The notes below the pieces were generated by a model. The model was not told where the DNA came from, made no database searches, and saw nothing but the letters and a program-made list of their open reading frames with translations. A DNA stretch of 64,000 nucleotides from Thermoanaerobaculia bacterium (GTDB lineage: Bacteria; Acidobacteriota; Thermoanaerobaculia; UBA5066; Gp7-AA6). The DNA lies in the NCBI GenBank assembly GCA_035263845.1, contig DATFQY010000005.1, positions 6,770-70,769 of the forward strand. The letters run 5' to 3'. The position numbers were made by a program, and so were the translations under genes. Below are positions 26,449-27,958 of this stretch, piece after piece; the first letter of the stretch is position 1; every line of letters begins with the position of its first letter.

Positions 26449-27822
26449 TCAGGGGCCGCCACGGCGCCTTCCGCCCCGGCGGCGCCGGTGCCGGCGGCCC
26501 GCGGGAGCGGCCGGGGGAGGCTGGCCGTGCGCCGCGATGAAGGCCTGCCGGGACTTCTCCAGCCGGGCCGCCAGGGCCCGCCATTCCCGGACCAGGTCAT
26601 CCCCCCGGCCCGTGGCCATGGCCCGGAGCTCGAAGAGCTCGAGGGCCGTCGGGAAGGCCTCGCGGAAGGCGAGGCGGGGAGTGGCCATGCGCGAATCCGG
26701 CCGGTGGGACAGCTTCCCCACGATCGCGAGCGACTGCTTGATCCGGTGAGTCACGGCGTGGGGAAGGGACATCCGGATACCGATCGGCGTGACGAGGTCC
26801 TCGAGCAGGCCCCCCAGCAGTCCCGGCGACGGATCGCCGTCGGGGGCGAGCGAGCGCAGCCGCGCCCGCACGATCGGAAGGAAGAACAGGGCGAACAGCA
26901 CCGCGTCCTCGAAGGTCCGGCCGCGCCGCCTCTCCGCGTCGAGAACGTCGAGGAGGGCCCAGAAGAGGTGCCCCGTGCCGTGGGGGTGCTCGGGGTCCGC
27001 CTCGCGCAGGACGTCGGCGAGCTCCGGCAGGAGGACGTCCAGGAGCCCGACCTCGCGCAGCAGCAGGAACGTCGTCAGCGCGTGCCCGCCCTTGAGCGAC
27101 TGCGACAGCTCCTCGGTGACCCTGGGCGGTGCGGACTTGATGATCTCGCGCCGGTGGTCGAGGATCGCCTCGTAGGCGTCGGGCGTGATCGCAAAGCCCA
27201 GCCGGCTGGCGAACTCCACGGCACGCATCATCCGGACCGGGTCCTCGCGGAATCGGATGTCCGGGTCGCCGATCGTCCGGACGAGGCCCGCCTCGAGGTC
27301 CTCGAGGCCGCCGACGTAATCGATCACTGAGTAGTCGGCGATGTTGTAGAAGAGCCCGTTGATCGTGAAGTCGCGGCGCAGGGCATCCTCGCGCGCCGTG
27401 CCGAAGACGTTGTCGGAGGTCATCAGCAGCTCCGGCGCGTCGGGGTCGAGCGGTTCCGGGCGGCGGCGGAACGTCGCGACCTCGATGACTTTCCCCTCGG
27501 CGAAGAGGATGTGCGCGAGGCGGAAGCGCCGGCCGATCAGGCGGCAGTTGCGGAAGAGCCTCCGGACCGCCTGGGGGTGAGCGTCGGTCCCGATGTCGAA
27601 GTCCTTCGGCACCCGTCCGAGAAGGAGGTCCCGGACGCTGCCGCCGACGAGGTACGCCTTGTACCCGGCGCTGGAGAGCCGGTAGAGGACCTTCAGGGCG
27701 TCCGGGTCGATTTGCCGCCGGGAGATTGGGTGCTCGCTGCGCGGCCGGATGCGCGGCGGGGTCTCCGCTGGACTTTCGATGGGGGTTTCCGTGGCCTCCG
27801 ACGCCGAAGTCGTATCGCTAAT
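26449..27822 (-). CDS. pcnB: Poly(A) polymerase / tRNA nucleotidyltransferase family protein (PcnB-like) with a non-canonical start codon.
   Basis: The conserved N-terminus [50 protein letters not shown] includes the GGxVRD catalytic motif. It is encoded in frame upstream of the first canonical start (GTG 27612), with no ATG/GTG/TTG back to the stop at 27937-27939. In-frame ATT codons sit at 27822, 27870 and 27882. The 5' end is given at the first ATT. Confidence 0.8.
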   Translation of the reverse strand: [457 protein letters not shown]

Positions 27823-27958
27823 CTGGGTTCTCCTCCGCCGCGGCGCGACCGAACGTATTCTATCCGAAATGCTTGTCGGAATTGATCTTTTGACTTTTCT
27901 TCGGGCTCTGCGAAAGAATAGCCCGTTTTCCGGGAATCACCCTCGAGGAGGCGATGCG

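Follow-up and report, generated by a model that had tools for sequence, protein, structure and literature searches.

The window analysed here, a 64,000-nt stretch of contig DATFQY010000005.1 from a soil-type Acidobacteriota bacterium of the class Thermoanaerobaculia, carries on its minus strand a pcnB gene, encoding a protein of the poly(A) polymerase (PAP) family. The gene is separated by an intergenic region of 136 nt from a divergent gene for a LivK-like periplasmic binding protein (Pfam Peripla_BP_6, E 3e-75), and this divergent arrangement was found in 77 of 80 loci. The features of the locus are listed in Table 1. The livK-like neighbour has the same Shine-Dalgarno (SD) build as pcnB, but an ATG start.

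Table 1. Features of the pcnB locus and of its divergent neighbour (positions in the window).
Feature	Position	Strand	Remarks
pcnB coding sequence as inferred	26449..27822	-	457 codons and stop, from ATT 27822 to stop codon 26451-26449
GTG, first canonical in-frame codon	27610..27612	-	JGI, ENA and Logan gene calls begin here (387 aa)
GGSVRD nucleotidyltransferase motif	27628..27645	-	Precedes the first canonical codon; E. coli counterpart GGGVRD
Hypervariable N-terminal linker, codons 2-21	27760..27819	-	Between the ATT start and the conserved motif
Start codon ATT (AUU), inferred	27820..27822	-	Homologous codon conserved in relatives
Shine-Dalgarno GGAGGAG	27830..27836	-	7 nt upstream of ATT 27822; read from the sequence
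TAGAAT, conserved -10-like box	27857..27862	-	Presumed pcnB promoter element; 34 nt upstream of ATT 27822
ATT used by PGAP, judged an over-extension	27880..27882	-	No SD (upstream aaaagtcaaaagatca), unconserved, upstream of TAGAAT
Sigma-70-like promoter TTGACT-18-AAGAAT	27890-27919	+	From a sigma-70 scan; on the divergent side
In-frame stop TGA	27937..27939	-	Upstream boundary of the pcnB open frame
Divergent LivK-like periplasmic binding protein gene, 5' end	27945..27961	+	SD GAGGAGG, 7-nt spacer, ATG 27959

The translation read from ATT 27822 scored 341.4 bits against the TIGR01942 model (cut-off 305.65) and covered profile positions 3–419 of 425, profile position 3 falling at residue 27 of the 457-aa protein. 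Pfam domains PolyA_pol (PF01743, residues 56–182, E 5e-35) and PolyA_pol_RNAbd (PF12627, residues 209–270) were recognized, as were the catalytic motifs GGSVRD and DFD, which are of the GGxVRD and DxD types. By BLASTP the protein was 39% identical to E. coli K-12 PcnB across 397 aa, its residue 27 (PRSEH) pairing with residue 33 (PREQH) of the E. coli sequence. These results were in agreement with the initial annotation, in which the segment upstream of the first canonical codon had been identified as a PcnB N-terminus including the GGxVRD motif. The best relative of solved structure was E. coli PAP I (3AQK–3AQN, E 7e-78), the best CCA-adding enzymes being found at E 7e-37, and the scores against all the NCBIfam CCA models were far below the cut-offs. 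The score against NF008634 (PRK11623, an enterobacterial-type equivalog) was 287.7 bits, below the cut-off of 702; judged by its sequence, the window protein is a member of the PcnB family but does not count as an equivalog of E. coli PcnB under the NCBI criterion. A PAP-type signature located after the catalytic core, reportedly described by Martin and Keller in 2004, is said to separate PAP from CCA-adding enzymes, and a 12-residue segment of the window protein aligns to this signature in E. coli. Family models and signature suggest PAP rather than CCA-adding activity.

Codon-by-codon reading of the pcnB frame gave 108 sense codons after the TGA at 27939–27937, with no ATG, GTG or TTG among them down to GTG 27612, confirming the absence of a canonical start that had been claimed for this gene. 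The near-cognate codons found in frame upstream of this GTG were ATT 27882, 27870 and 27822, as already noted in the initial annotation, together with ATA 27858, ATC 27780, 27750, 27726 and 27711, and CTG 27696. Canonical-start triplets make up 3.1% of the codon usage of this gene; at that rate a run of 108 codons free of them has a probability of about 0.03, and chance by itself is not a negligible explanation for the stretch. The stretch is meaningful because it is conserved protein sequence: PcnB homology begins 44 codons upstream of GTG 27612, and a conserved N-terminus located upstream of any canonical codon bears out the proposal that initiation has to be non-canonical. Between -60 and +100 nt relative to ATT 27822, no frame of the window contained a canonical triplet, which ruled out both a frameshift and an ORF that begins upstream in a different frame, and no canonical triplet in any frame near the site was common to at least 15% of the loci.

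The upstream regions of related pcnB genes were aligned at the species level, the set comprising the window and 80 Thermoanaerobaculia loci, the best among 190 matches, all from uncultured metagenome-assembled genomes (MAGs). The conserved ATT or ATC with an SD-like element for which the initial annotation had proposed to look was indeed present, as ATT, ATC or ATA (ATH) behind an SD in 57 of the 81 sequences. The codon homologous to ATT 27822 was ATT (43), ATC (13) or ATA (1); the remaining start types were CTG (13) and ATG (10), one sequence being cut by a contig end. Among the ATH codons at this site ATT accounted for 75%, vs 5% of the Ile codons in gene bodies (Fisher p 1.6e-39, shared ancestry being ignored), and this dominance of ATT stands against a genome GC content of 68%. 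An SD-like motif was found upstream of all ATH (57/57) and all CTG (13/13) sites, the corresponding figure for internal ATH or CTG codons being 15%; the GG at -11/-10 carried 1.5–1.6 bits, and the first two bases of the ATH codon were invariant (2.0 bits). When the start motif was searched for irrespective of frame, 55 of 56 matches were in frame with pcnB, at seven distances (171–204 nt) all of which are multiples of 3, and since these spacings are all divisible by 3 the linker is translated. In 32 of 56 ATH-type sequences the stretch from the in-frame stop to the conserved domain is entirely free of canonical starts, and in sequences of this type the stop is often just 7–16 codons before the Ile codon of the start. 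Thus, of the three ATT codons put forward as candidates, 27822 is both conserved and preceded by an SD, whereas 27870 and 27882 are unconserved in relatives, lack an SD and are situated on the far side of the -10-like box, upstream of it.

The TAGAAT-type box was conserved in 79 of 81 sequences. Of the 57 ATH-type loci, 55 had a TAnAAT box 24–52 nt before the start, one had it at 88 nt, and the last had none. The distance from box to start was 92–115 nt in the clade with CTG, and 8–9 nt in eight of the nine loci of a clade with ATG, the ninth (L038) having 26 nt. This conservation points to a promoter function of the TAGAAT box, which a simple sigma-70 scan did not call because it has no good -35 element. 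Folding of the 73-nt initiation region was no better than that of shuffled sequences (z = +1.45) with respect to a structure masking the SD or the start, and structural regulation of pcnB initiation was dropped on this ground.

Taken together, it appears likely, and we hold this with good confidence, that pcnB translation begins at AUU 27822–27820, behind a strong SD and on a short leader transcribed from the TAGAAT promoter, and that this start has been kept weak in the lineage. The initiator tRNA would read the near-cognate AUU, placed by GGAGGAG with its 7-nt spacer, in an mRNA whose leader of about 25–30 nt would arise from the promoter with the -10-like box at 27862–27857. The predicted product of 457 aa would consist of a variable linker of about 21 residues followed by the conserved catalytic N-terminus PRIRPRSEH...GGSVRD. 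For the species represented by L002–L006, the predicted N-terminal tryptic peptide is MSETTSAIQTPDSR.

In an outgroup-rooted tree (100 bootstraps) the ingroup was monophyletic in 100/100 replicates, as was the CTG clade (100/100), and the nine-member ATG clade was nested (97/100). Ordinary starts in orthologues, named beforehand as an observation that would speak against a non-canonical start, were found in ten of the 80 species, as ATG nested within the near-cognate clade, whereas about 70 of these independently assembled species have a near-cognate codon at the equivalent place. On these alignments the near-cognate start is a maintained trait of a whole lineage within the Thermoanaerobaculia, with at least 70 species. 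AUU would be the ancestral state, with drift to AUC and AUA; CUG would have replaced it once, and AUG would have been regained twice, on one of these occasions together with a deletion of the SD leader. In nine of the ten ATG species the ATG is accompanied by loss of the SD leader. The SD motif is absent from eight of the nine ATG-clade species, and since their ATG lies 8–9 nt past TAGAAT and the SD is absent, the transcript of this subclade looks leaderless or near-leaderless. The start of the CTG subclade, less certain than that of the ATT group, would be the invariant, SD-preceded CTG at -61. The codon at -54 was rejected for this subclade, as it varies among ATG, GTG, TTG and CTG, is CGC in L012, and has no SD. 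An ATG at -74 in L028-type loci was also rejected as a start, since it belongs to a TACAAT -10-like box.

Several other readings have to be weighed. Initiation at AUU could be real without acting as a constitutive brake, as the strong SD may allow sufficient output; the codon would then be regulatory, tying PAP synthesis to IF3 level, growth rate or stress, or else nearly neutral in a lineage whose initiation apparatus accepts near-cognate codons. This reading overlaps the main explanation, differs from it in purpose only, and is considered unlikely. An ATG behind a canonical, well-spaced SD was found at pcnB in none of the 80 species, though it is one GC-favoured change away, and both ATG reversions occurred without a canonical, well-spaced SD; the absence of SD-backed ATG and the SD-poor reversions argue for selection against efficient initiation and not for neutrality. 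On the other side stand an SD much stronger than that reported for E. coli pcnB (PMC3561954), the tolerance of third-base drift among T, C and A and of the CUG switch, and the established role of IF3 in discriminating such codons in E. coli (PMC5499595). The lineage may be regarded as a natural experiment, in which the four codons tolerated are those that initiate at about 1–2% of AUG in E. coli and ATG returns only where a canonical, well-spaced SD is lacking.

The position of the start was also weighed. GenBank/PGAP entry HKF41522.1 (477 aa) starts the gene at ATT 27882, the most upstream table-11 start in frame, and protein P0303 is identical to the translation of the window gene from there. 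The 20 additional residues (MPTSISDRIR...) are unconserved, and in most relatives an in-frame stop separates the equivalent position from the conserved ATT. Moreover, this codon has aaaagtcaaaagatca and no SD upstream, and lies upstream of the TAGAAT box and inside the -35 region of the divergent promoter. PGAP itself picks the conserved ATT in L001 (orthologue P0304) and in two other relatives, as seen in entries HKA37185.1, HEY3123433.1 and HYV42246.1. A start at 27882–27880 is very unlikely on these grounds. Highly improbable, too, is a start at ATC 27780 or ATC 27750, two in-frame codons that follow ATT 27822 and lie upstream of the conserved region or at its edge: both lack a properly spaced SD, their positions are not conserved among relatives, and the Ile specified by ATC 27750 is the conserved one of PRIRPRS, within the block of homology. 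GTG 27612 is the sole canonical option and was chosen by public gene callers, and the E. coli literature has considered a PAP I that lacks its N-terminus because it is initiated at an internal AUG (PMC2939334). A start at this GTG is nevertheless hardly credible: it would remove GGSVRD together with some 45 residues, 80–100% conserved in 80 species, that align to E. coli residues 33–77, and the region upstream shows the evolution of a coding sequence, all its indels being in frame. Finally, a sequencing or assembly indel, named beforehand as a finding that would speak against the claim, or a decaying pseudogene can practically be discounted, even though the source is a MAG and an unrelated long-read contig (L089) has such a frameshift, because the equivalent configuration recurs in about 70 of 80 independent assemblies, from many studies and including multi-megabase long-read contigs, the ORF runs uninterrupted for 457 codons and its product exceeds the family cut-off, and no nearby canonical triplet exists in any frame for an indel to restore.

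Three N-termini of this one gene are in circulation in public databases, giving products of 387 aa, 477 aa and 457 aa, the last being the one supported here. The exact 387-aa product is present in public collections (P0297, P0298), and 36 of the top 120 public homologues are similar truncated calls, whose starts at arbitrary internal V, M or L codons point to a caller artefact; roughly one in three of the close homologues listed is a truncated call without the catalytic motif. PGAP calls are inconsistent, the window gene probably being 20 codons too long and many relatives being over-extended or truncated to 412–415 aa. Such annotations could be corrected with the help of the conserved signature of SD and AT[T/C/A]-AGC-GA. 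The annotations of these PcnB starts come without comparative or functional argument. The novelty of the present findings is limited, since the AUU of E. coli was known and GenBank already records ATT starts in this gene family; they add a second well-sampled PAP I lineage in which a near-cognate start is kept over many species.

The initial annotation had considered a deep conservation of the weak start between distant bacteria. The sampled outgroups mostly have an ordinary ATG and do not bear this out. In the closest ones (P0121 and P0122, 55–56% identity) an ATG stands directly before the conserved motif, and one of them shares synteny; ATG starts were also found in other Thermoanaerobaculia, in Thermoanaerobaculaceae, in Lentisphaerota and in most of 150 diverse representatives. 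Metagenomes searched with P0122, an outgroup protein, yielded three distant loci (36–41% identity) of no use. Two outgroup representatives that looked truncated were discarded: P0190 is a caller truncation with ordinary ATGs upstream, and L089 has a frameshift in a 1.3x long-read contig. Because the sampled intervening lineages use ATG, the weak start is a clade-level feature and probably convergent with that of E. coli; most likely, as far as the sampled sequences indicate, it arose independently of the proteobacterial one, with no continuous inheritance. A further case is suggested by a Planctomycetota lineage with a conserved ATC at 'IEPTILSP' behind AGGA, in which PGAP starts one PcnB at ATC, and an ATC start has been proposed for Meiothermus pcnB (PMC2830850). 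Weak pcnB initiation may thus be recurrent and independently evolved, in Proteobacteria (AUU), the present Thermoanaerobaculia lineage (AUU, AUC, AUA or CUG, or a leaderless AUG), a Planctomycetota lineage and possibly Meiothermus, a generalization that we put forward tentatively and at somewhat less than even chance. If true, dosage toxicity of poly(A) polymerase would be general in bacteria, and selection would act on initiation strength with any codon, start codon and leader being interchangeable tuning knobs. With a second well-sampled lineage, the E. coli AUU moves from a one-organism curiosity towards a general rule by which PAP output is restrained at initiation.

The AUU start of E. 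coli pcnB is textbook knowledge. The parallel drawn with it in the initial annotation is real: E. coli has GAGG, 6 nt and ATT, the window GGAGGAG, 7 nt and ATT. In both proteins a non-conserved N-terminal extension (26 residues in the window, 32 in E. coli) precedes PR(E/S)xH.ISR, and the C-terminal tail is basic. The genomic context differs, folK being located downstream in E. coli whereas the window gene has the divergent livK-like gene and, downstream, an ECF sigma gene, and so does the phylum, the window belonging to the class Thermoanaerobaculia of the Acidobacteriota. In E. coli the AUU start goes with translationally limited expression (Binns and Masters 2002, as related in PMC2939334 and PMC3561954), and excess PAP I is lethal through tRNA polyadenylation (PMC3561954). 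AUU, AUC, AUA and CUG initiate there at about 1–2% of AUG (bioRxiv 10.1101/063800), and exactly these four near-cognates occur at the Thermoanaerobaculia pcnB site. If E. coli pcnB and infC are taken as a guide, the weak AUU would hold PAP synthesis low and IF3-sensitive, a low level being expected because excess PAP I is toxic, and the weak codon probably limits the PcnB level in the window lineage. The window SD is strong, however, whereas the E. coli ribosome binding site has been described as poor (PMC3561954), so that the two genes may be throttled to different extents. The nine-species ATG subclade, and not the window gene, resembles leaderless, AUG-requiring mRNAs.

In infC a near-cognate AUN with U, C or A as third base stands behind a normal SD over many species (PMC5499595, PMC2830850). 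Thermoanaerobaculia pcnB likewise has AUN behind an SD, with T, C or A in the third position. The infC codon differs in being conserved in nearly all bacteria and in forming part of an autoregulatory feedback loop, which arises because IF3 discriminates against infC's own codon. To our knowledge PcnB has no role in start-codon discrimination, and any IF3 dependence of pcnB would consequently be one-way.

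Codon-by-codon reading of the pcnB frame on the minus strand, starting from the in-frame TGA at 27939–27937, gave a run of 108 sense codons, none of them ATG, GTG or TTG, in agreement with the initial annotation, which had reported no canonical start upstream of the catalytic N-terminus. With pcnB's own codon usage the chance of a start-free run this long was about 0.03, so its length alone is unremarkable and the encoded content is what counts. No canonical triplet was found in any frame from −60 to +100 nt around ATT 27822, which leaves no indel or frameshift path to a normal start. 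The features of the region are listed in the table.

Features of the pcnB region in the window
Feature	Position	Strand	Basis or remark
First canonical in-frame codon of pcnB (GTG)	27612	−	codon reading
pcnB stop	26451–26449	−	frame runs from GTG 27612 to here
In-frame ATT codons	27882, 27870, 27822	−	codon reading
Other in-frame near-cognate codons	ATA 27858; ATC 27780, 27750, 27726, 27711; CTG 27696	−	codon reading
Conserved TAGAAT box	27862–27857	−	conservation
Shine-Dalgarno sequence (SD), GGAGGAG	27836–27830	−	7-nt spacer to ATT
Inferred pcnB start, ATT	27822–27820	−	conserved, SD-preceded
Divergent neighbour initiation (GAGGAGG, 7-nt spacer, ATG)	27945–27961	+	sequence
ECF-type sigma factor gene	25792–26400	−	begins 48 nt past pcnB stop
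Putative anti-sigma gene	24995–25795	−	overlaps sigma gene

Against the PcnB model TIGR01942 (cut-off 305.65) the protein read from ATT 27822 reached 341 bits, the profile beginning at residue 27, and both the PolyA_pol head and RNA-binding domains were present. Its best solved relative was E. coli poly(A) polymerase I (PAP I; E 7e-78), with the CCA-adding enzymes far behind (E 7e-37), and identity to the K-12 enzyme was 39% over 397 residues. The start-free segment does match the E. coli PcnB N-terminus, as initially annotated: PRSEHPISR...GGSVRD pairs residue by residue with PREQHAISR...GGGVRD, and a start at GTG 27612 would cost the protein about 45 strongly conserved residues as well as GGSVRD. 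Since the score on the enterobacterial equivalog model was below the cut-off (288 bits versus 702 needed), the product is named a PcnB-family enzyme with putative poly(A) polymerase activity. The protein ends in an arginine-rich tail (26452–26500, minus strand), kept in the relatives, which is reminiscent of the basic C-terminal end of E. coli PAP I.

The organism is placed by database names in the class Thermoanaerobaculia, phylum Acidobacteriota, and the GC content of the window is 68%. A genome scan provided 80 species-level loci, the best of 190 matching loci, all from MAGs and with protein identities of 73–91%, which were compared together with the window (81 sequences). With codons numbered from the GG of GGSVRD, ATT 27822 is codon −59, and an isoleucine codon at −57 to −61, rarely at −66 or −68, was present in 57 of the 81 sequences (ATT in 43, ATC in 13, ATA in one; hereafter the ATH group). 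This codon, whose first two bases are invariant (2.0 bits), lies 6–10 nt after GGAG, GAGG or GGAGG, the GG of the SD reaching 1.5–1.6 bits; farther upstream no conservation was seen in this group except for a TAnAAT box. In 32 of the 56 ATH sequences examined, the stretch from the preceding in-frame stop to the conserved domain contained no canonical start, and this stop was often just 7–16 codons before the isoleucine codon.

Three controls argue that the conserved codon serves as a start rather than as a usual isoleucine codon. ATT accounts for 75% of the codons at this site versus 5% (90/1805) of isoleucine codons elsewhere in these genes (Fisher p 1.6e-39, shared ancestry not corrected for). 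An SD-like motif precedes all 57 ATH start codons versus 15% of internal ATH or CTG codons. Finally, in a frame-free search with AT[TCA]A[GAC][CA]GA, 55 of 56 matches were in frame with pcnB, at seven distances from the domain (171, 174, 177, 180, 183, 198 and 204 nt), each divisible by three, which shows that the hypervariable linker between start and conserved domain is translated. The initial annotation had proposed an ATT start paralleling that of E. coli pcnB, and a conserved ATT or ATC with an SD-like element as its expected signature in relatives; the latter was found in the ATH group, and the former is well supported and now placed at 27822, a conserved AUU positioned by its SD.

Directly after the ATH start codon the sequence A-N-C-G-A is nearly invariant (A-G/A/C-C-G-A, 'AGCGA'; window 27812–27819 and the corresponding positions of 57 loci), whereas the next 20 codons are hypervariable. 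This motif could mean that the first residues of the protein are constrained, or that the initiation region carries a feature acting at the RNA level.

No SD was found ahead of ATT 27882 or ATT 27870, both of which lie upstream of the TAGAAT box, ATA 27858 overlaps this box, and none of the three codons is conserved in the relatives. The start used by GenBank's automated annotation (PGAP), ATT 27882, is thus probably the wrong ATT. Public records give three different N-termini for this gene (27610–27882, minus strand): HKF41522.1 (GenBank/PGAP, 477 aa) is the exact window protein read from ATT 27882, the JGI, ENA and Logan gene calls (387 aa) begin at GTG 27612, and the 457-aa form from ATT 27822 was not present in the 15-billion-sequence collection searched. 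PGAP does start three relatives at the conserved ATT (HKA37185.1, which corresponds to locus L001, HEY3123433.1 and HYV42246.1), and 36 of the top 120 homologue clusters were truncated calls starting within or after the conserved N-terminus.

Two monophyletic groups depart from the ATH arrangement. In 13 species an invariant CTG is found at −61, 7–9 nt after GGAGAG, while codon −54 varies (ATG, GTG, TTG, CTG or CGC); since two members (L012 and L039) have no canonical option, CTG is likely the start in this clade. The other nine species have ATG AGC at the homologous position. In eight of their loci (L024, L026, L033, L036, L043, L045, L046 and L067, about 2990–3055; L038 differs) the ATG is 8–9 nt past the TAGAAT box, and eight of the nine are without SD; this layout looks like that of a leaderless or near-leaderless mRNA, and a deletion of about 26 nt appears to have replaced the SD and ATT arrangement. 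The box-to-start distance is 24–52 nt in 55 of the 57 ATH loci (88 nt in one, box missing in another) and 92–115 nt in the CTG clade. A further locus, L027, has ATG with no recognisable SD, and no ATG behind a canonical, well-spaced SD was found at pcnB among the 80 species.

Nearly all 80 loci share a divergent LivK-like binding-protein gene, pcnB and then an ECF sigma/anti-sigma pair. The initiation regions of pcnB and its divergent neighbour are alike in build and differ in the start codon (ATT versus ATG), and two predicted back-to-back promoters seem to share the 136-nt intergenic region. The block AAAGTCAAAA (pcnB strand; window 27885–27900), shared by the inspected pcnB upstream sequences of the window and of the CTG and ATG clades, corresponds to TTGACT on the plus strand, the predicted −35 of the LivK-like gene, with AAGAAT 18 nt downstream of it. 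The pcnB–sigma–anti-sigma order is kept in about 70 of the 80 relatives, about half of these having an extra insert of about 1 kb between pcnB and the sigma gene. The putative anti-sigma gene gave no Pfam match; the next gene (block 24375–26400, minus strand) encodes a product that matches a LiaF-like transmembrane domain weakly, below threshold.

In an outgroup-rooted tree of the 81 sequences (100 bootstraps), the ingroup was monophyletic in 100/100 replicates, both basal branches carried ATT, the ATT clade of the window had the CTG clade as its sister, and in 97/100 replicates the ATG clade fell inside near-cognate lineages. The simplest history suggested by this tree is that the near-cognate start arose once, at the base of the lineage, and that its third base then drifted repeatedly among T, C and A, with a single switch to CTG and two returns to ATG. 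An outgroup survey of 1.84 billion representatives gave 150 diverse PcnB-like proteins (40–60% identity), most of which start with M placed two to ten residues ahead of the P.I.PR..H.ISR motif (e.g., MQPRIIPRSEH, MEPRII). The DNA of the two closest outgroup proteins, P0121 (56% identity, divergent-gene synteny as in the window lineage) and P0122 (55%, named Thermoanaerobaculia), showed plain ATG starts (ATG AGC or ATG ACC). The weak start is therefore not continuous between the window lineage and Proteobacteria, and the deep conservation of a translational throttle envisaged at first is not borne out; the weak start is conserved at clade level (about 70 or more species) and is probably convergent with that of E. 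coli.

For many Proteobacteria, AUU has been suggested as the PAP I start (PMC3561954, citing Binns & Masters 2002), and an ATC start was proposed for a Meiothermus pcnB-like gene (PMC2830850). A Planctomycetota PcnB lineage (L088, L090 and L091; IEPTILSPTG...DAVRATQRL) has no canonical start in frame ahead of the domain and may be another, independent instance of a near-cognate pcnB start. At IEPTILSP it has a conserved ATC GAA CCG ACG after AGGA (L088, about 1400–1500; L090 and L091, about 560–610); PGAP uses this ATC in one genome, and CTG or ATC further downstream in others. A frameshift in the N-terminal region of L089 (about 1390–1500), from a 1.3x long-read metagenome contig, was judged an assembly error and not biology, and illustrates why one locus on its own would not be enough.

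The initiator tRNA would be expected to pair with AUU despite the third-position mismatch, and IF3 disfavours initiator-tRNA complexes on such near-cognate codons (PMC5499595). No unusual RNA structure was found in the pcnB initiation region. In E. coli, AUU, AUC, AUA and CUG initiate at about 1–2% of AUG (bioRxiv 10.1101/063800), and exactly this class is tolerated at the start in the window lineage. Near-cognate codons at the start, with ATG only where a canonical, well-spaced SD is missing, form the pattern that selection for weak pcnB initiation would give. In E. coli the AUU start is part of what keeps PAP I down to a few tens of molecules in each cell, and PAP I in excess is lethal through polyadenylation of mature tRNAs (PMC3561954). 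In the window lineage an effect of this kind, possibly IF3-dependent, might serve as a constant brake or as a coupling to growth rate. The E. coli principle is textbook knowledge, and GenBank already uses ATT starts for this family, inconsistently; added here are the comparative proof of the site, the range of codons found there and the observation that a return to ATG goes with loss of the SD leader. The window gene differs from E. coli pcnB in its strong SD, whereas the E. coli ribosome binding site is described as poor.
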